This document shows positions 28,798 through 50,650 of a DNA stretch of 64,000 bases, in pieces; positions within the stretch are counted from its first letter, which is position 1; each line of letters opens with the position of its first letter. Position numbers and translations under genes: made by a program. Origin of the DNA: Escherichia coli (GTDB taxonomy: Bacteria > Pseudomonadota > Gammaproteobacteria > Enterobacterales > Enterobacteriaceae); the NCBI RefSeq assembly GCF_041886205.1, contig NZ_CP169029.1; one strand, 5' to 3'. The notes under the pieces are model-generated. The model ran no database searches. It saw only the letters and a list, made by a program, of their open reading frames with translations, and was not told the DNA's origin.

Positions 28798-29329
28798 ATG
28801 AGCTTACTCAACGTCCCTGCGGGTAAAGATCTGCCGGAAGACATCTACGTTGTTATTGAGATCCCGGCTAACGCAGATCCGATCAAATACGAAATCGACA
28901 AAGAGAGCGGCGCACTGTTCGTTGACCGCTTCATGTCCACCGCGATGTTCTATCCGTGCAACTACGGTTACATCAACCACACCCTGTCTCTGGACGGTGG
29001 ACCCGGTTGACGTACTGGTCCCGACTCCGTACCCGCTGCAGCCGGGTTCTGTGATCCGTTGCCGTCCGGTTGGCGTTCTGAAAATGACCGACGAAGCCGG
29101 TGAAGATGCGAAACTGATTGCTGTTCCGCACACAAAGCTGAGCAAAGAATACGATCACATTAAAGACGTTAACGATCTGCCAGAGCTGCTGAAAGCGCAG
29201 ATCGCTCACTTCTTCGAGCACTACAAAGACCTCGAAAAAGGCAAGTGGGTGAAAGTTGAAGGTTGGGAAAACGCAGAAGCCGCTAAAGCTGAAATCGTTG
29301 CCTCCTTCGAGCGCGCAAAGAATAAATAA
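28798..29329 (+). pseudogene. ppa: Inorganic pyrophosphatase, reading frame broken by an apparent +1 insertion near 28999
   Basis: Track ORFs 28798..29010 and 28850..29329 are the N- and C-terminal halves of Ppa in different frames; span is 532 nt = 531 + 1. Extra G read in ...ctggacggtgGacccggtt. Confidence 0.9.
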
Positions 29330-29344
29330 GTTCTTATAGCGCAA

Positions 29345-29386
29345 TAACCCTGAACACCGGGCTTCGGTTAGTAAGGGTTTTTTTAT
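29345..29386 (+). terminator. Probable ppa terminator
   Basis: GC-rich imperfect hairpin followed by a T7 run downstream of the ppa stop. Confidence 0.4.
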
Positions 29387-29405
29387 GCCCGCGATAAATA
29401 AACAC

Positions 29406-29758
29406 TTATTCCACCACCGCCTGCAAGCGTAATAACGCCTCTTCCACCACCTCATCCGCAGCCAGACCAATACGCTTTGCCAGCCGGGCGCGTAGATCCA
29501 TCATCCGCACCTGATTAACCAGCACCACGCCGTGCACATCGCCTTCTTCGCAATGTAAAGGAACGCTAAATCCGGCATAACGGGCAAAATTTCCACACCC
29601 TGCGTAATGGGGGCCACCAGCGTCATTCCCAGTTGATTAAAGGCTTGAACGGAGAGCACAAGCGCAGGTCGACCAGCACCTTGCTGTTCATGGCCGCTTG
29701 CTGGATCAAAGCCAACCAGCACAATGTCTCCCCGTTCAAATTCACTTTTCTTTACCAT
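29406..29758 (-). pseudogene. chpB: ChpB (MazF-like) toxin, frame broken by an apparent 2-bp tandem duplication near 29585-29588
   Basis: Track ORF 29501..29758 matches ChpB through ...VAPITQG, then diverges; the remaining ChpB sequence continues in another frame to a stop near 29406. Confidence 0.85.
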
Positions 29759-30003
29759 ATTTCGTCACCCGCAGGGGTGGATTTACCCCAGACATCCTGC
29801 TCGCTAAGTTCCGCGGCGTTCATGTCACACTGTGCCAGCAGTTCATCAAGCGAGTAGCGCCTGGAGATGGGTGTCAGAATCAGTTGGTTGTTGCTCACCT
29901 GCGCTTCCACGCTCTGCCCCGGCTGTAAGTTAAGTTCTTTCATTACGATATTGGGAATGACCATACCTGCACTGTTCCCCCATCTTTTTATGGTAATACG
30001 CAT
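29752..30003 (-). CDS. chpS: ChpS antitoxin (MazE-like)
   Basis: 83 aa from the internal Met (MRITIKRWGNSAGMVIPNIVMKELNL...); appears intact. Confidence 0.9.
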   Translation of the reverse strand: MRITIKRWGNSAGMVIPNIVMKELNLQPGQSVEAQVSNNQLILTPISRRYSLDELLAQCDMNAAELSEQDVWGKSTPAGDEIW

Positions 30004-30017
30004 CTGCACCTCCTTAA

Positions 30018-30034
30018 GTTATACAAAGTATAAC
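30018..30034. promoter_or_regulatory. Palindrome upstream of chpS, candidate autoregulatory operator
   Basis: Perfect inverted repeat gttatacAAAgtataac just upstream of the chpS start. Confidence 0.4.
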
Positions 30035-30175
30035 TCACGGTGCTACAGGAAACGTTTTACCCCTGCGCATTTGTGAATGCCAGCAGAGTTTTTTATGCGT
30101 TAATAGATATGGAAAGCGGCTCGGAGAGAAAAGCAAAAGGTGAGGGAATTACAAAACAGAATGCGAGTCGTCTCG

Positions 30176-30218
30176 CAAAAAACAACGCCACCCGCGAAGG
30201 TGGCGTGCTTTTATTATT
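30176..30218. terminator. Hairpin with flanking A/T runs downstream of ytfP, probable bidirectional terminator
   Basis: cgccaccc-gcgaa-ggtggcg stem-loop with an A-run on one side and a T-rich run on the other. Confidence 0.55.
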
Positions 30219-30558
30219 ACTTATCCCTGTCTAACCAGTCGCCGCTTTCAATTAGCTTTAATCCATCGACGGGTCGTTGATAAACGTACATCCATGCACT
30301 CCCGTACGGCGTCTGAATCAACTGGCGCGCGTATTCACCGCCCCTGGTGCGCAAGGCATCAAGTTCGGCCAGCGTGGCGTTGTCAATACGATAAACTTCA
30401 CCGTGTACTGTTCCGTTCCCCGGAACTGCGCCTGGATAGTGGCCCAGGCTATACAACTGGTAGTTATCGATACTGAAATCGCCCAGTAACTGGGCATTGG
30501 TCATCCAGTGACTGTTGCCTTGTTTGTGGCGTAAACTGCCGTAGACAAATATTCGCAT
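30217..30558 (-). CDS. ytfP: Gamma-glutamylcyclotransferase-family protein YtfP
   Basis: 113-aa ORF, intact, K-12 synteny. Confidence 0.92.
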   Translation of the reverse strand: MRIFVYGSLRHKQGNSHWMTNAQLLGDFSIDNYQLYSLGHYPGAVPGNGTVHGEVYRIDNATLAELDALRTRGGEYARQLIQTPYGSAWMYVYQRPVDGLKLIESGDWLDRDK

Positions 30559-30560
30559 TG

Positions 30561-36126
<5,566 letters not shown>

Positions 36127-36289
36127 TTAAACGGCTTAACAAAAATCCAGTAATATGGATTAAAAAGCAGACTAAACCCCAAATATTTCTTATGTTTTAC
36201 TTTAGACCTATTCACGGTGGTTATTGTGTGCAAATACGCCTCTTGTTACAACCTTAACCCCAATGACCGATTTTCGGGAGAGCGACACC

Positions 36290-36931
36290 ATGAGTTTATT
36301 TGATAAAAAGCATCTGGTTTCCCCCGCCGATGCCCTGCCTGGACGTAACACCCCGATGCCCGTAGCCACGCTGCATGCGGTCAACGGTCACTCAATGACC
36401 AATGTACCTGACGGAATGGAGATTGCCATTTTTGCGATGGGTTGTTTCTGGGGTGTGGAGCGTCTGTTCTGGCAGTTACCCGGCGTTTACAGCACCGCCG
36501 CAGGCTATACCGGCGGCTATACGCCAAAAAATCCGACTTATCGGGAAGTGTGCTCCGGTGATACGGGTCATGCCGAAGCGGTACGCATTGTTTACGATCC
36601 TTCCGTCATCAGCTATGAGCAGTTGCTACAGGTATTTTGGGAGAATCACGATCCCGCCCAGGGAATGCGTCAGGGCAATGACCACGGCACGCAGTATCGT
36701 TCAGCGATTTATCCGCTGACCCCAGAACAGGATGCCGCAGCTCGCGCCAGTCTGGAACGTTTTCAGGCGGCGATGCTTGCCGCCGATGACGATCGTCGCA
36801 TCACCACGGAAATCGCTAACGCCACACCGTTTTATTATGCCGAAGATGACCACCAGCAATATCTGCATAAAAACCCGTATGGTTACTGTGGAATTGGCGG
36901 AATTGGCGTCTGTCTGCCGCCGGAAGCATAG
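36290..36931 (+). CDS. msrA: Peptide methionine sulfoxide reductase A
   Basis: GCFWG active-site motif; open throughout. 213 codons here versus 212 aa remembered for K-12, possibly an in-frame 3-bp A-run expansion near 36526-36531. Confidence 0.92.
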
Positions 36932-36977
36932 CGTTACGGGTACAAATGTAGATTGTCGATAAAGTGCTATTTGTCTA

Positions 36978-37078
36978 TGCCGGATGCGGCGTAAACGCCT
37001 TACCAGGCCTACAAAATCGTCCAAATTCAATATATTGCATGGACTGCGTAGGCGGCCTGATCGGCATAGCGCATCAGG
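36978..37078. repeat. REP/BIME palindromic repeat cluster
   Basis: gccggatgcggcgtaaacgcctta(t)ccaggcctac-like units between msrA and ytfL. Confidence 0.65.
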
Positions 37079-37256
37079 CAGTTTTGCATTTATTAGCAGC
37101 CTGAATTTTAACCCTCTGGCGGCTTTACAGTACCTTACGCTATACTAGCCACTGAAAATGCCGGTTCACTTTCTTCGAATCGGCTTTCAATGTGTATTTC
37201 ACACAAATTAATCAACTTCCCCTTCCGAGGATCTGGCCTGAAAGGTCGGATAAGAT

Positions 37257-38603
37257 ATGTTAAACAGTATTTTAGTCATACTCTGCTTGATCGCTGTAAG
37301 TGCGTTCTTCTCGATGTCCGAGATCTCACTTGCCGCCTCACGCAAAATCAAACTTAAACTGCTGGCTGATGAAGGCAATATAAATGCCCAACGCGTTCTG
37401 AATATGCAGGAAAATCCCGGCATGTTCTTTACCGTGGTCCAAATCGGTCTGAACGCAGTGGCGATTCTCGGCGGTATCGTCGGTGATGCGGCATTTTCTC
37501 CAGCTTTTCACAGCCTGTTCTCCCGCTATATGTCGGCAGAGCTCTCTGAGCAACTGAGCTTTATTCTCTCTTTCTCGTGTTAGTGACTGGCATGTTTATC
37601 CTGTTTGCGGATTTAACCCCGAAACGCATCGGTATGATTGCGCCAGAAGCTGTGGCTTTGCGTATCATCAACCCGATGCGCTTCTGCCTGTACGTTTGCA
37701 CCCCGCTGGTGTGGTTCTTCAACGGCCTGGCGAACATGATCTTCCGTATTTTCAAACTGCCAATGGTACGTAAAGATGACATCACTTCTGATGACATCTA
37801 CGCGGTAGTGGAAGCCGGTGCGCTGGCGGGCGTGTTACGTAAACAGGAACACGAGCTGATTGAAAACGTCTTTGAGCTGGAATCCCGAACCGTTCCGTCT
37901 TCAATGACACCGCGTGAAAACGTGATTTGGTTTGATCTCCACGAAGATGAGCAAAGTCTGAAGAATAAGGTGGCGGAACATCCGCACTCTAAGTTCCTCG
38001 TCTGTAATGAAGATATTGACCACATCATCGGCTATGTCGATTCTAAAGACCTGCTGAACCGCGTGCTGGCTAACCAAAGCCTGGCACTGAACAGCGGCGT
38101 ACCAAATTCGCAACACGCTGATTGTGCCGGATACGTTAACCCTTTCAGAGGCGTTGGAAAGTTTTAAAACCGCAGGTGAAGACTTCGCGGTGATCATGAA
38201 CGAGTACGCGCTGGTGGTGGGGATCATCACCCTCAACGACGTGATGACCACGCTGATGGGCGATCTGGTCGGTCAGGGTCTGGAAGAGCAGATTGTCGCC
38301 CGTGATGAGAACTCATGGCTGATTGACGGCGGCACTCCGATTGACGACGTCATGCGCGTGCTGGATATTGACGAGTTCCCGCAGTCGGGCAACTACGAAA
38401 CCATCGGCGGCTTTATGATGTTTATGCTGCGTAAGATCCCGAAACGCACCGATTCGGTGAAATTCGCCGGCTACAAATTTGAAGTGGTGGATATCGATAA
38501 CTACCGCATCGACCAGCTGCTGGTGACCCGGATCGACAGCAAGGCCACCGCCCTTTCGCCAAAACTGCCTGACGCTAAAGATAAAGAAGAAAGCGTCGCG
38601 TAA
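37257..38603 (+). pseudogene. ytfL: CNNM/CorC-family membrane protein YtfL (DUF21 + CBS + CorC-HlyC), two apparent frameshifts
   Basis: Three track ORFs (37257..37583, 37577..38167, 38124..38603) tile the YtfL sequence; 2-bp dup near 37577-37580 and +1 C near 38102-38103. Confidence 0.87.
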
Positions 38604-38664
38604 CCCCCAGAAACATCAACGGCTCCTGAATCAGGAGCCGTCTTATTACTGCATAGCACTTTGG

Positions 38665-38871
38665 TTAAGCCATCTCTGTTTGCAGACGCATAACCTGACG
38701 GTTAACTTCGGACATCACTGACAAATGCAGCTTATCCTTCACTTTTGGGATAAGAATCTTACCCTTATCAAATTCAAAAGCGCCAACGTCCTTGATGTAT
38801 AACCGTCCACGGAACAGGATCTTTACGTACTTCGCCACCTGAAGTGGGTTGTACCGTTGGAAAATTTTCAT
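38665..38871 (-). CDS. ytfK: Small protein YtfK (DUF1107)
   Basis: 68 aa from the internal Met ([30 protein letters not shown]...), intact. Confidence 0.9.
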
Positions 38872-39198
38872 TGTTATCTCCTGCTGAGTATTACGCCTGT
38901 GCGGTGCCACAATCGGCCCAACTATTATGAGGCGCAAATTTTAATGCTTAGTGACTATAGACTATCCGGGCAATGTTTCCACCGCGTATAACTTTTTTTA
39001 CCTAAAGGTTACAATTATTCAGAATTATCTTTTTACCGAAGCGCGGTCTTCAGTATAAGCATTCATTTTTCATATGATTTGTGCGCTTGACCGCAAACTG
39101 GCATCACACTTGCGGGAAATTCGATAAATAGCACATATTATGATTAAAACTCAGACCCAAGTGGTCGGATCACCTGCATATCATAAGAAGGAAACACC

Positions 39199-39755
39199 AT
39201 GACCCTACGCAAGATTCTGGTACTCACCTGCCTGCTGTTGCCGATGATGGCTTCCGCACATCAGTTCGAAACCGGTCAGCGAGTGCCGCCGATTGGCATT
39301 ACCGATCGTGGCGAGTTGGTGCTTGATAAAGATCAGTTTAGCTACAAAACCTGGAACAGCGCGCAGTTAGTGGGAAAAGTGCGAGTACTGCAACATATTG
39401 CTGGTCGCACCTCTGCAAAAGAGAAAAACGCGACGCTGATTGAAGCGATTAAATCAGCGAAGTTACCGCACGATCGTTACCAGACCACCACCATTGTTAA
39501 CACCGACGACGCAATTCCGGGTTCCGGCATGTTTGTGCGCAGCAGTCTGGAGAGTAATAAAAAGCTTTATCCCTGGTCGCAGTTTATTGTCGATAGCAAT
39601 GGCGTCGCGCGCGGTGCCTGGCAGCTGGATGAAGAAAGTTCCGCTGTGTAGTGGTGCTGGATAAGGATGGTCGCGTGCAATGGGCCAAAGACGGGGCGCT
39701 CACTCAGGAAGAGGTGCAGCAAGTGATGGACCTGCTGCAAAAGTTGCTCAAATAA
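39199..39755 (+). pseudogene. ytfJ: Periplasmic protein YtfJ, truncated at residue 150 by an apparent 2-bp tandem duplication near 39645-39648
   Basis: Track ORF stops at 39651 after ...EESSAV; the rest of YtfJ (VVLDKDGRVQWAKDG...QKLLK) continues in the +2 frame to about 39755. Span is 557 nt = 555 + 2. Confidence 0.85.
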
Positions 39756-39817
39756 TGGCAACAACATAGAGTCTGCAAAAATAATATTCCCCTGTCGATA
39801 CCTATGGGATAGGGGAA

Positions 39818-40783
39818 TTAAGTGTATGAGTTCTTACGCCGAACTAATACTGGTAACGCTAGTTGCTCTTTTTTAAACGCCTCAATGGTAGATTTATATT
39901 TCTCGCAAATCTCCTCTTCGGTAATATCACTATCTACCGCCAGATTCGCACTTACTATCGCATCCACTTGTTCGGCTAATTCCACTTGTTGGCAACCTGC
40001 ATTAACCAGAAAATTATAAATAAGAGAGTAATCTTCATCCTCCAAAACAACAAAGGAACCATTACGAAAACGTTCATCCCCTCCATAGATTGTAAGTACA
40101 GAGCCCAAAGATTCTATGACTATGGCAAAATTATCATCAATTATTTTTTCGTAAATAAATATACCATCCATCGCATTCTTTAATTCCACCTCCTGGTATT
40201 TGGAGTTCAAATTTACCCCGTTTTAATTTGCTTACTATATCCTCCAATAAGGCATAACCTAAAGACACGTCACCAAACGCCTGGCGAATATAACCTTTAA
40301 TCCTTTTCGGTATGTCAGACTGTTTTTTCGGTATGTCAGACTGTTTTTTCTGTAAAATATCCCAGGCATACAATCTTCTGTTTTGTTCTAACGGAAACTC
40401 GCGGTTTTTGAAATCCATGAATGAGTTATACTCATTTATTGTTATGGGAATTTCTTCGTATTCAAACCCACTGCCTCGCAATGTCATTGTATATTCGGCA
40501 CCGTTATCTTTAAGGCTGAAACTGATAAGAAACTTATCCATGGCGTTAACAGTTTCATTTTTTGATGAAAGTACCTGATAACTATTTTTATCAATCTGAG
40601 TTGCGCAACGAAAGAACTCCCTCAAAGTTAAGAGGCTATCATAATTCGAAACCCAATCTTTTTCCCTCCTAAATGCATGCTGAATATTATTAAAAAATTG
40701 TTTGAATGTGTTTTTGTATGCGATGATTTTACAAATAACTCCACCGCACCAATAAAATTATTGTGTCTGATCCTGGGTAACAT
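39818..40783 (-). pseudogene. ytfI: AT-rich uncharacterized protein YtfI, split into at least two or three frames
   Basis: Track ORFs 39818..40210 and 40137..40625 overlap in different frames; an in-frame ATG further upstream (about 40781-40783) opens a third frame that runs into a stop near 40630. Confidence 0.7.
40304..40345. repeat. Perfect 21-bp tandem duplication inside ytfI
   Basis: ttttcggtatgtcagactgtt occurs twice head-to-tail, encoding the repeated heptapeptide KKQSDIP. Confidence 0.8.
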
Positions 40784-40994
40784 ATGGCCACCTTATTTTA
40801 TTTGGTTATTTTATGTCGCCATTAAATATCTCATTATAGAAGTAAACTATCAAAAAACGCTCATTATTAAAATGTAACTTATTAGCAATTGAATTTTTGC
40901 ACTTTAAATACAATCTCTTTTTATTTATAACTTTTTAGGTTGGGAGAAATCAGGATGGCAGAATCAGGAAATACACTGTTTCTGCCATCTGAAT

Positions 40995-41742
40995 TTAGTA
41001 AATAGACACTCTGAACCCCGGATTCAGGAACGACTCGCGCGGAGTGTAATCCAGCGGTTTACCCTGCCAGTCGTGAACGTGCGCTCCGGCAGCTGCAGCC
41101 ACAGCATGTCCAGCGGCGGTGTCCCAAATATTCGTTGGTCCGAAGCGCGGGTACAGCTGCGCCTGTCCTTCCGCCACCACCAGGCAGAATTTCAGCGAAG
41201 AGCCGATGGACGTGGTCTGATGTTCGCCAAGCTGTTGCAGATACTCTTTCAGCTCCGCATCTGCATGGGAACGGCTGATAACCACCAGCGGCGGGCGCGC
41301 ATCGCGGACCTGAATCTGCTTGCGCACACCGCACTCTTCTTTCCAGGCTTTACCTTCTGCCGCGCTGTACATTACGTTCATTACCGGCGCATACACCACA
41401 CCTAAAATCGGTTTGCCGTGATCGATGAGCGCAATGTTAACGGTGAATTCGCCATTACGTTTAATAAACTCTTTAGTACCATCCAGCGGGTCTACCAGCC
41501 AGTAACGCTGCCAGTGCTGACGGACTTCCCAACCGGGAGGATCTTCTTCAGAAAGGACCGGAATATCCGGTGTCAGCGTACGTAAACCGTCCATGATAAC
41601 GGTGTGTGCGGCAATATCCGCTGCCGTTACCGGAGAATTGTCCGCTTTGCTGACGACGTCCATCGGTTTCGCCCCGTCGTAGACCTACCTGCATAATGGC
41701 ATCGCCTGCATTCCGTGCAAGCTGGCATACTTGATCTAACAT
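40995..41742 (-). pseudogene. cysQ: 3'(2'),5'-bisphosphate nucleotidase CysQ, frame broken by an apparent 4-bp tandem duplication near 41683-41690
   Basis: Track ORF 41548..41742 matches CysQ through ...GDAIMQV then diverges; ORF 40995..41663 carries the rest ([20 protein letters not shown]...). Plus-strand acctacct reads as a doubled acct. Confidence 0.87.
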
Positions 41743-41922
41743 TTCTCCACCTCGTCTCTGTGAGCGGTGTTAACTTATTGTTTTACTTATACCCTATCGT
41801 TAATGAATGCGCCAACTGTGATAGTGTCATCATTTTCAAAGCGTAAAATTGTGGCATTCTTCACTGTTCTATAAGTAAGACGTTTATTCTCCCTTTTCTT
41901 TCGTATTCCCGATGATAAAAGG

Positions 41923-43882
41923 ATGTCCCTGATGATTAAGTTTAGCGCAACGCTCCTGGCCACGCTGATTGCCGCCAGTGTGAATGCAGCGACGGTCGAT
42001 CTGCGTATCATGGAAACCACTGATCTGCATAGCAACATGATGGATTTCGATTATTACAAAGACACCGCCACGGAAAAATTCGGACTGGTACGTACGGCAA
42101 GCCTGATTAACGATGCCCGCAATGAAGTGAAAAACAGCGTACTGGTCGATAACGGCGATTTGATTCAGGGGAGTCCACTGGCCGATTACATGTCGGCGGC
42201 GAAAGGATTAAAAGCAGGTGATGTTCATCCGGTTTATAAGGCGCTGAATACGCTGGATTACACGGTCGGTACACTCGGCAATCATGAATTTAACTACGGT
42301 CTGGATTACCTGAAAAATGCGCTGGCGGGAGCGAAATTCCCTTATGTAAATGCCAACGTCATTGACGCCAGAACCAAACAGCCAATGTTTACACCGTATT
42401 TAATTAAAGATACCGAAGTGGTCGATAAAGACGGAAAAAAACAGACGCTGAAGATTGGCTATATTGGCGTCGTGCCGCCGCAAATCATGGGCTGGGATAA
42501 AGCTAATTTATCCGGAAAAGTGACGGTGAATGATATTACCGAAACCGTGCGCAAATACGTGCCTGAAATGCGCGAGAAAGGTACCGATGTCGTTGTCGTT
42601 CTGGCGCATTCCGGGCTATCTGCCGATCCGTATAAAGTGATGGCGGAAAACTCAGTTTATTACCTCAGTGAAATTCCTGGCGTTAACGCCATTATGTTTG
42701 GCCATATGCTCACGCCGTTTTCCCAGGTAAAGATTTTGCTGATATCGAAGGGGCTGATATCGCGAAAGGCACGCTGAATGGTGTTCCGGCGGTAATGCCG
42801 GGCATGTGGGGCGATCATCTTGGGGTGGTCGACTTACAACTCAGTAATAACAGCGGTAAATGGCAGGTGACGCAGGCGAAAGCGGAAGCACGGCCGATTT
42901 ACGACATCGCCAATAAAAAATCCCTCGCGGCGGAAGACAGCAAGCTGGTAGAAACACTCAAAGCCGATCACGATGCCACACGCCAGTTCGTCAGCAAGCC
43001 AATCGGTAAATCCGCCGACAATATGTATAGCTATCTGGCGCTGGTGCAGGACGATCCGACCGTGCAGGTGGTGAACAACGCGCAAAAAGCGTATGTCGAG
43101 CATTACATTCAGGGCGATCCGGATCTGGCAAAACTGCCGGTGCTTTCAGCTGCTGCACCGTTTAAAGTTGGTGGTCGCAAAAATGATCCGGCAAGCTATG
43201 TGGAGGTGGAAAAAAGGCCAGTTGACCTTCCGTAATGCCGACGATCTTTATCTCTACCCCAATACGCTGATTGTGGTGAAAGCCAGCGGTAAAGAGGTGA
43301 AAGAGTAGCTGGAGTGCTCCGCCGGACAGTTTAACCAGATTGATCCTGACAACACGAAACCACAGTCACTCATCAACTGGGATGGTTTCCGCACCTATAA
43401 CTTTGATGTGATTGATGGTGTGAATTATCAGATTGATGTTACCCAGCCTGCCCGTTATGACGGCGAGTGCCAGATGGTTAATGCCAATGCGGAAAGGATT
43501 AAGAACCTGACCTTTAATGGCAAGCCGATTGATCCGAACGCCATGTTCCTGGTTGCCACCAATAACTATCGCGCTTACGGCGGCAAATTTGCCGGTACGG
43601 GCGACAGCCATATCGCTTTTGCTTCACCGGATGAGAACCGCTCGGTGCTGGCAGCGTGGATTGCTGATGAGTCGAAACGTGCGGGGGAAATTCACCCGGC
43701 GGCAGATAACAACTGGCGTTTTAGCACCGATAGCTGGCGATAAGAAACTGGATATCCGTTTCGAAACCTCTCCATCAGATAAAGCCGCGGCGTTTATTAA
43801 AGAGAAAGGGCAATATCCGATGAATAAAGTCGCGACCGATGATATCGGGTTTGCGATTTATCAGGTGGATTTGAGTAAGTAA
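41923..43882 (+). pseudogene. cpdB: 2',3'-cyclic-nucleotide 2'-phosphodiesterase / 3'-nucleotidase CpdB, four disruptions
   Basis: Fragments 41923..42777, 42795..43235, 43093..43308, 43408..43743 and 43517..43882. Apparent 2-bp dup near 42704-42707, +1 A near 43210-43215, in-frame TAG at 43306-43308 where Trp is expected, +1 T near 43729-43732. Confidence 0.87.
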
Positions 43883-43909
43883 TACACTTCTTTTTCGGCC
43901 TATAAATCA

Positions 43910-44000
43910 TCAACCGCATCCGGCACTTTTGTCGGATGCGATGCTGGCGCATCTTATCCGCCCTACAAGTCATGAACCGTAGGCCGGATAAGCGCAGCCG
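43910..44000. repeat. REP/BIME palindromic repeat cluster
   Basis: gcatccggc...gccggataagcg-type palindromes between cpdB and ytfH. Confidence 0.65.
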
Positions 44001-50469: not shown

Positions 50470-50650
50470 TACGTCTGGCTTCCAGTGCCTGGGGGGAAAC
50501 CATACTGATATGTTGACATCCTCCACGCCCTGAAGGACGTGGATCCCTGCTACGTTCAGGCTGTCGCCTGAATCATTTCGGTGGGTTCCTGCTTCAACGA
50601 GCGGCCTGACTGCACCATCTCTCCACAGGCAAGAACGGCGTGCCCCGCCG
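50470..50650 (-). ncRNA. Predicted omega-RNA (TnpB guide RNA) overlapping the tnpB 3' end and the adjacent IS end
   Basis: Inferred only from the known architecture of TnpB systems; structured hairpin-containing sequence lies just downstream of the tnpB stop. Confidence 0.25.

Follow-up and report, generated by a model that had tools for sequence, protein, structure and literature searches.

The cpdB gene in the 64,000-nucleotide stretch of E. coli DNA analysed here (the window) carries several lesions within about 2 kb, which raises the question of whether a single process damaged the gene or whether unrelated events coincide in it. An earlier note, made from the letters of the sequence, had counted four lesions, three small insertions and one in-frame stop codon, and attributed the mixture to a general error or mutation process rather than to one mechanism. 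Comparison with related genomes leads us to a different answer. With a probability of about 0.9, two unrelated causes overlap in cpdB, namely duplications left by software at chunk junctions and a genuine, inherited nonsense codon, W457*.

The identity of the gene was established by comparison with complete genomes. Positions 41800-44000 of the window show up to 99.7% DNA identity to annotated cpdB, with matches in 5,403 of 5,426 complete RefSeq E. coli genomes. The annotated start codon lies at 41932 and the stop codon at 43880-43882; position 41923 is an in-frame ATG upstream of the annotated start. The annotation of the matching regions shows the usual gene order cysQ-cpdB-ytfH, and the segment as a whole corresponds to the E. 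coli chromosome in the order ppa-chpSB-ytfP-tamBA-msrA-paeA-ytfK-ytfJ-cysQ-cpdB-ytfH-qorB. When the insertions described below are removed, a cpdB reading frame of 647 codons results, which equals WP_000589468.1 apart from W457*. The intact allele, with residue 457 as its sole difference from the repaired gene of the window, matches TIGR01390 over its full length with 1238 bits (cut-off 883). Pfam places Metallophos (PF00149) at residues 24-260 of CpdB and 5_nucleotid_C (PF02872) only downstream of residue 457, in agreement with the precomputed Pfam domains of the relatives of 647 amino acids.

We then aligned positions 41800-44000 of the window with the E. coli strains wlxctx60 and D9. This three-way alignment contains exactly five differences in 2.2 kb, four insertions and a G>A substitution at 43307. 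The 2-bp duplication that the earlier note placed at about 42704-42707 is an AT duplication at that site, the extra A at about 43210-43215 lengthens a run of five A to six, and the TAG where Trp was expected is a TGG>TAG change at codon 457. An extra T in a T-run is also real, although the run lies ten bases to the left of the reported 43729-43732. The listed lesions thus all exist, but a fifth had been overlooked, an in-frame CGG insertion. As it stands in the window, cpdB cannot be read as a functional gene, with three frameshifting insertions, one in-frame insertion and W457*, and the TAG persists once the insertions are taken out. All positions are collected in Table 1.

Table 1. Positions in the window of the duplications, of cpdB and its stop codon, and sizes of the pieces into which the train of duplications can be divided. 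Basis: A, comparison with NZ_AP045833.1; B, gene mapping; C, check for tandem duplication; D, gene mapping together with absence from six further genomes.
Feature	Position	Strand	Detail	Basis
Block of 24 duplications	28999-43722		quasi-periodic tandem duplications of 1-4 bp; inferred chunk junctions	difference list, periodicity statistics, B, C
ppa	28999		+G, codon 68 of 176; frameshift to 70-aa stub (ORF 28798-29010)	A; 0 of 5,418 genomes
chpB	29594-29595		+CA, codon 55	A, B, C
Intergenic chpS-ytfP	30193-30194		+CG	A, B, C
tamB	32213-32214		+TC	A, B, C
tamB	32774		+C	A, B, C
tamB	33338		+C	A, B, C
tamA	34426		+G	A, B, C
tamA	34950-34951		+GA	A, C, D
tamA	35474-35476		+GGA	A, C, D
tamA	35999-36002		+CCTG	A, C, D
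msrA	36526-36528		+AAA	A, C, D
Intergenic msrA-paeA	37051-37053		+GGC	A, C, D
paeA	37577-37578		+GT	A, C, D
paeA	38102		+C	A, C, D
Intergenic ytfK-ytfJ	39136-39138		+TAT	A, C, D
ytfJ	39645-39646		+TG	A, C, D
Hypothetical gene	40152-40155		+TAAA	A, C, D
Hypothetical gene	40665-40667		+CCT	A, C, D
cysQ	41174-41176		+CCA	A, C, D
cysQ	41683-41686		+ACCT, codon 19; frameshift	A, C, D
cpdB (2',3'-cyclic-nucleotide 2'-phosphodiesterase/3'-nucleotidase)	41932-43882	+	broken: 4 insertions and 1 nonsense codon	
cpdB	42194-42196	+	+CGG, codon 88; in-frame extra Ala	alignments, C
cpdB	42704-42705	+	+AT, codon 257; frameshift (ATAT at 42704-42707)	alignments, C
cpdB	43210	+	+A, codon 425; A5>A6 (run 43210-43215)	alignments, C
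cpdB stop codon	43306-43308	+	TAG for TGG (W457*), G>A at 43307; KEVKE*LECSAGQ	common to wlxctx60 and 6EVA
cpdB	43719	+	+T, codon 594; T3>T4 (run 43719-43722)	alignments, C
Piece 1			about 2382 bp; 4 chunks of 595.5 bp	
Piece 2			about 861 bp; 1 chunk	
Piece 3			about 2246 bp; 4 chunks of 561.5 bp	
Piece 4			4707 bp; 9 chunks of 523 bp	
Piece 5			about 5573 bp; 11 chunks of 506.6 bp	

The stop codon has a distribution of its own. The same G>A is found in wlxctx60 (NZ_AP045833.1; bear faeces, Japan), where PGAP marks cpdB as a pseudogene with an 'internal stop', and in 6EVA (CP138428.1; human), where cpdB is called as two genes of 456 and 157 amino acids. The exact 61-mer around the TAG occurs in 2 of 5,426 genomes, only these two. 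Over 25 kb these two are likewise the nearest genomes, and they were sequenced independently. Both share the synteny cysQ-cpdB-ytfH-qorB with the window, and their flanking sequence is identical to it after deletion of the window's four insertions; over the four junction 61-mers the identity is 97.1%. In contrast to the window, they carry the stop codon alone and none of the insertions. Since W457* is present in the two nearest, independently sequenced strains, we regard it as a genuine nonsense allele that a small clade of E. coli has inherited. Being already annotated in a relative, wlxctx60, the allele is not new. The stop is predicted to truncate CpdB inside the C-terminal substrate-binding domain of the 5'-nucleotidase type, for which Pfam finds its match past the stop codon. 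Even with the insertions taken out, cpdB would thus probably be a true pseudogene in this strain, with loss of function. A second natural change, a 1-bp deletion at about 40692, lies in the hypothetical gene between ytfJ and cysQ, amid the insertions treated below as artefactual. It is present in the window, in wlxctx60 (PGAP 'frameshifted') and in 6EVA, is absent from five other genomes, and is a real clade marker.

To place the insertions in cpdB in a wider context, the whole window was aligned to the nearest E. coli genome, NZ_AP045833.1, and all differences were listed, mapped to genes and checked for tandem duplication. From 3718 to 64000 the two sequences differ by a dozen substitutions, one IS insertion of 1310 bp and 24 insertions, with no deletion. 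All 24 insertions fall between 28999 and 43719, about 14.7 kb, in which only three substitutions are found. The sole other indels in the comparison of about 60 kb are three of 1-2 bp (net zero) at 3024-3029, in the divergent left end. Besides the four in cpdB, the insertions hit ppa and chpB once each, tamB three times, tamA four times, msrA once, paeA twice, ytfJ once, and the hypothetical gene and cysQ twice each. The remaining three of the 24 sites are intergenic, gene boundaries bear no relation to the site positions, and the train runs across twelve genes. The suggestion of a general process therefore got the structure wrong, because the indels extend periodically over 14.7 kb beyond cpdB and the stop codon is inherited. 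An error process does stand as a candidate, but the indels form one systematic set and the stop is separate from it.

All of the insertions are exact tandem duplications of 1-4 bp, without a single non-templated insertion. The duplicated unit is single-copy in the reference at 15 of the 24 sites, as for ACCT, CCTG and TAT, and no more than three sites lie in homopolymer runs of three or more bases. The insertion sites are not slippage hot spots. We considered ordinary random sequencing or consensus error here, that is, homopolymer miscalls from a long-read or flow-based platform with poor polishing. Frameshifting indels are common in unpolished assemblies, and two of the changes in cpdB alter run length (A5>A6 and T3>T4). 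Such error, however, should include deletions, should concentrate in homopolymers and should not be periodic, whereas only 3 of 24 sites lie in runs of at least three bases and duplications of 3-4 bp of mixed composition occur (ACCT, CCTG, TAAA). The roughly 45 kb outside the block, in which the only indels are the three at 3024-3029, also speak against it. We therefore regard random error as very improbable.

Next, we analysed the spacing of the insertions. Measured on the reference, the distances between consecutive insertions are 594, 597, 2018, 559, 563, 1087, 523, 522, 522, 523, 522 and 523 bp (intervals 1-12), followed by 523, 1033, 506, 505, 509, 506, 506, 507, 507, 504 and 508 bp (intervals 13-23). 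Neighbouring intervals agree within 5 bp in 16 of 22 pairs, compared with a maximum of 4 among 200,000 random placements, and a minimum interval as large as the observed 504 bp was reached in none of the 200,000. Linear fits resolve four blocks with periods of about 595.5, 561.0, 522.5 and 506.5 bp and a residual SD of 0.4-1.6 bp. When extrapolated, block ends meet the start of the next block (33890 vs 33894; 38597 vs 38601). Because of this coincidence, the three long intervals can be understood as containing lattice points with a duplication length of zero.

On this basis the train can be divided into five pieces that adjoin one another, and a model in which a piece of length L is split into floor(L/500) chunks of equal size fits every one of them. 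Of the six boundaries between and around the pieces, two (33892 and 38599) are backed from both sides and four are extrapolated. We also tried to tie the piece boundaries to genes and rejected this, as they do not coincide with gene boundaries. The length of the duplications is zero at the piece ends and largest in the middle, running 1, 2, 3, 4, 3, 3, 2, 1 in the piece of 4707 bp. Such a smooth drift points to an offset in coordinates that is fixed at the two ends of every piece. The spacing is most regular in true-sequence coordinates, and therefore the chunk starts would have been laid on a template already of correct length. Homopolymer-compressed coordinates and basecaller signal chunks were discarded as sources of the lattice, as either is estimated to make the intervals vary by more than 10 bases, and a consensus would average out the effects of single reads.

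A fixed-window polisher of the Racon or CONSENT type could also leave regularly spaced marks. Windows of 500 bases would have been applied to a noisy draft, and differences in net deletion rate among the raw reads that served as draft backbone would account for the different periods. A window of 500 bases is a documented default, window extremities are a known weak point, every period is at least 500, and the 506-bp block is statistically compatible with this origin (P = 0.06). The 522.5-bp block, however, is much too regular, its SD being 0.5 where at least 4.9 would be expected (P = 2e-5). Moreover, block ends coincide with chunk boundaries of both neighbours, equally subdivided pieces fit better, and the best regularity in true-sequence coordinates implies a template that already had the right length. 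Taken together, we consider a classical fixed-window artefact unlikely.

The insertions were then sought in other genomes. All 24 are absent from the nearest genome, NZ_AP045833.1, and the 17 from 34950 onward are absent from six further natural genomes whose loci cover that stretch only. These six loci were obtained through the qorB product, which is itself shared by too many genomes to be diagnostic. None of 5,418 genomes has the ppa junction, and none of 5,426 complete E. coli genomes shares any of the four cpdB junctions. When the four cpdB junction 61-mers were concatenated, the best identity in any genome was 237/244, the value expected if none is shared. In agreement with this, the frameshift products (two N-terminal stubs of cpdB and the stub of ppa) were not found in large protein collections, nor was the cpdB AT junction found in collections of genome and metagenome contigs.

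Among the genes hit, ppa is the most informative. Its 70-aa stub extends no further than positions 1-51 of the Pfam Pyrophosphatase model, which has 153 positions. The gene is said to have been found essential in E. coli by Chen et al. in 1990, and reportedly also in the Keio collection. In a more recent study, deletion of ppa from E. coli succeeded only in the presence of an expressed heterologous pyrophosphatase (PMC9959109). The loss of ppa is biologically implausible, with essentiality established in K-12 laboratory strains rather than in this strain.

These data bear directly on genuine gene decay, in which real frameshift and nonsense mutations would accumulate through relaxed selection, mismatch-repair deficiency or Shigella-like reductive evolution. 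Pseudogenes do occur in E. coli lineages, the cpdB TAG and the 1-bp deletion near 40692 are real and common to relatives, and three insertions sit in short homopolymers. Pseudogenes arising by natural slippage or mismatch-repair frameshifts resemble the window in their small, frame-breaking indels, a few of them in short mononucleotide runs. Natural slippage, however, yields losses as well as gains, favours existing repeats, is purged from essential genes and forms no lattice, and the window shows the opposite on each point. No random set among 200,000 was as regular as the observed one, only insertions are present and all are exact duplications, 15 of 24 units had no pre-existing repeat, substitutions are almost lacking alongside, intergenic sites are equally affected, and ppa, an essential gene, is destroyed. 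None of 5,426 genomes carries any of the junctions tested, one in ppa and four in cpdB. Gene decay is thus extremely improbable as the source of the insertions. We know of no mutational process that makes only duplications of 1-4 bp, on a lattice of at least 500 bp, in coding and non-coding sequence alike and with flanks free of indels.

The spacing is regular and blind to sequence features, the junction repeats are exact, related assemblies lack them and their consequences, as in ppa, are implausible, all of which are marks of an artefact. As judged from this pattern alone, the 24 insertions were most likely produced by software and not by the cell. The most likely cause is chunk stitching, with pieces divided by the equal-chunk rule given above. 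In this process, a stretch of some 15.8 kb within an E. coli chromosome assembly that is otherwise clean would have been put together anew from successive chunks of at least 500 bp, each generated independently, which were then concatenated with their overlap incompletely trimmed. Each chunk would thereby begin with the same 1-4 bases on which its predecessor ended, and the four insertions in cpdB would be the final four members of the train of 24.

Published tools work along related lines. MarginPolish and HELEN process chunks of 1000 bases with an overlap of 50 bases, which are aligned and then stitched 'to remove the duplication' (PMC7483855), while Racon and CONSENT use windows of 500 bases by default, with window extremities as a weak point (PMC7804095). 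As in the window, pieces of a round target size are re-joined in these tools, and partial removal of the overlap would leave duplications at the junctions. These schemes differ from the window in lacking an equal subdivision of pieces of variable length, and the spacing in the window, with periods of 596, 561, 523 and 506 bp, does not have the fixed stride of the documented polisher windows. In the literature on windowing and stitching we found no published description of the periodic-duplication signature, and the HyPo preprint held nothing bearing on it. The forced bubble partition of Flye (maximum bubble 500 plus about 6) would give a stride of 506 bases. This stride fits only one of the four periods, and we do not claim Flye's partition as the cause.

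The duplications could also have been introduced after assembly, by joining overlapping blocks of text, or consensus sequences of amplicons, by hand or with a script, or by deliberate perturbation of a test sequence. In favour of this, the sequence apart from the duplications is near-perfect, the duplicated bases are exact copies, the chunks are evenly spaced in true-sequence coordinates, and a search of protein, genome and metagenome collections did not recover the source sequence. The strain's own IS insertion and recombinant patch, however, argue against a trivially modified RefSeq complete genome. We consider post-assembly editing decidedly unlikely; it would likewise not be biology, and it overlaps with the chunk-stitching explanation. 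An edited RefSeq complete genome was in addition rejected as a candidate by direct comparison, because no genome is identical outside the block, the window having its own IS insertion and a divergent left end.

If the duplications were physically present in the sequenced DNA, they might stem from aberrant repair at regular nicks or primers, or from an engineered or synthetic segment built of blocks of about 0.5 kb. This would call for a process that marks the chromosome every 500-600 bp or so over a tract of about 15 kb, and for a cell that survives the loss of ppa by compensation, or else for non-viable DNA. We rate the chance of this as close to negligible. Defects in Okazaki-fragment or flap processing were considered separately and set aside, as fixed positions are not expected from them and the hit in ppa would be lethal.

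With chunk stitching as the preferred cause, the indels are not a real feature and there is nothing biologically new at this locus. The biological weight of the locus is small, with one ordinary, lineage-specific nonsense allele of cpdB as the probable yield. The record itself should be treated as corrupted here, with about 15 kb of systematic frameshifts in positions 28.4-44.2 kb of the window. The duplications risk being mis-scored as ten or more pseudogenes, essential ppa included, or as genome decay or a mutator phenotype, and they inflate indel counts in comparative analyses. A simple screen could be applied to other assemblies, searching for exact junction duplications of 1-4 bp on a lattice of at least 500 bp, with no deletions and with clean flanks.

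Outside the block, the window shows three further features. The left end, positions 1-3717, diverges from the nearest genome, with 97.8% identity at 1-1590, 86% at 1644-2478 and dense substitutions up to 3717, compared with about 99.99% identity in the rest of the window. This end has a match of 99.5% in other E. coli genomes, and it resembles a patch acquired by recombination, close to argF and a 'DNA-binding protein' gene. Positions 52984-54293 hold an intact IS3-family element of 1310 bp, of the IS629/IS1203 type, with terminal inverted repeats TGAACCGCCCCGGG, orfA at 53038-53364 and orfB at 53361-54251. The element lies within yjfZ (DUF2686), flanked by a target-site duplication of 4 bp (GTTG). 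The two nearest genomes lack it at this position, and it contains no periodic duplications. Finally, at 399287-400928 of NZ_AP045833.1, an IS200/IS605-type element, consisting of an IS609 tnpA fragment and an intact TnpB/InsQ gene, splits a TetR-family regulator gene beside ytfB. Because the window aligns without indels to NZ_AP045833.1 in this region, the same insertion should be present at about 50500-52500 of the window.
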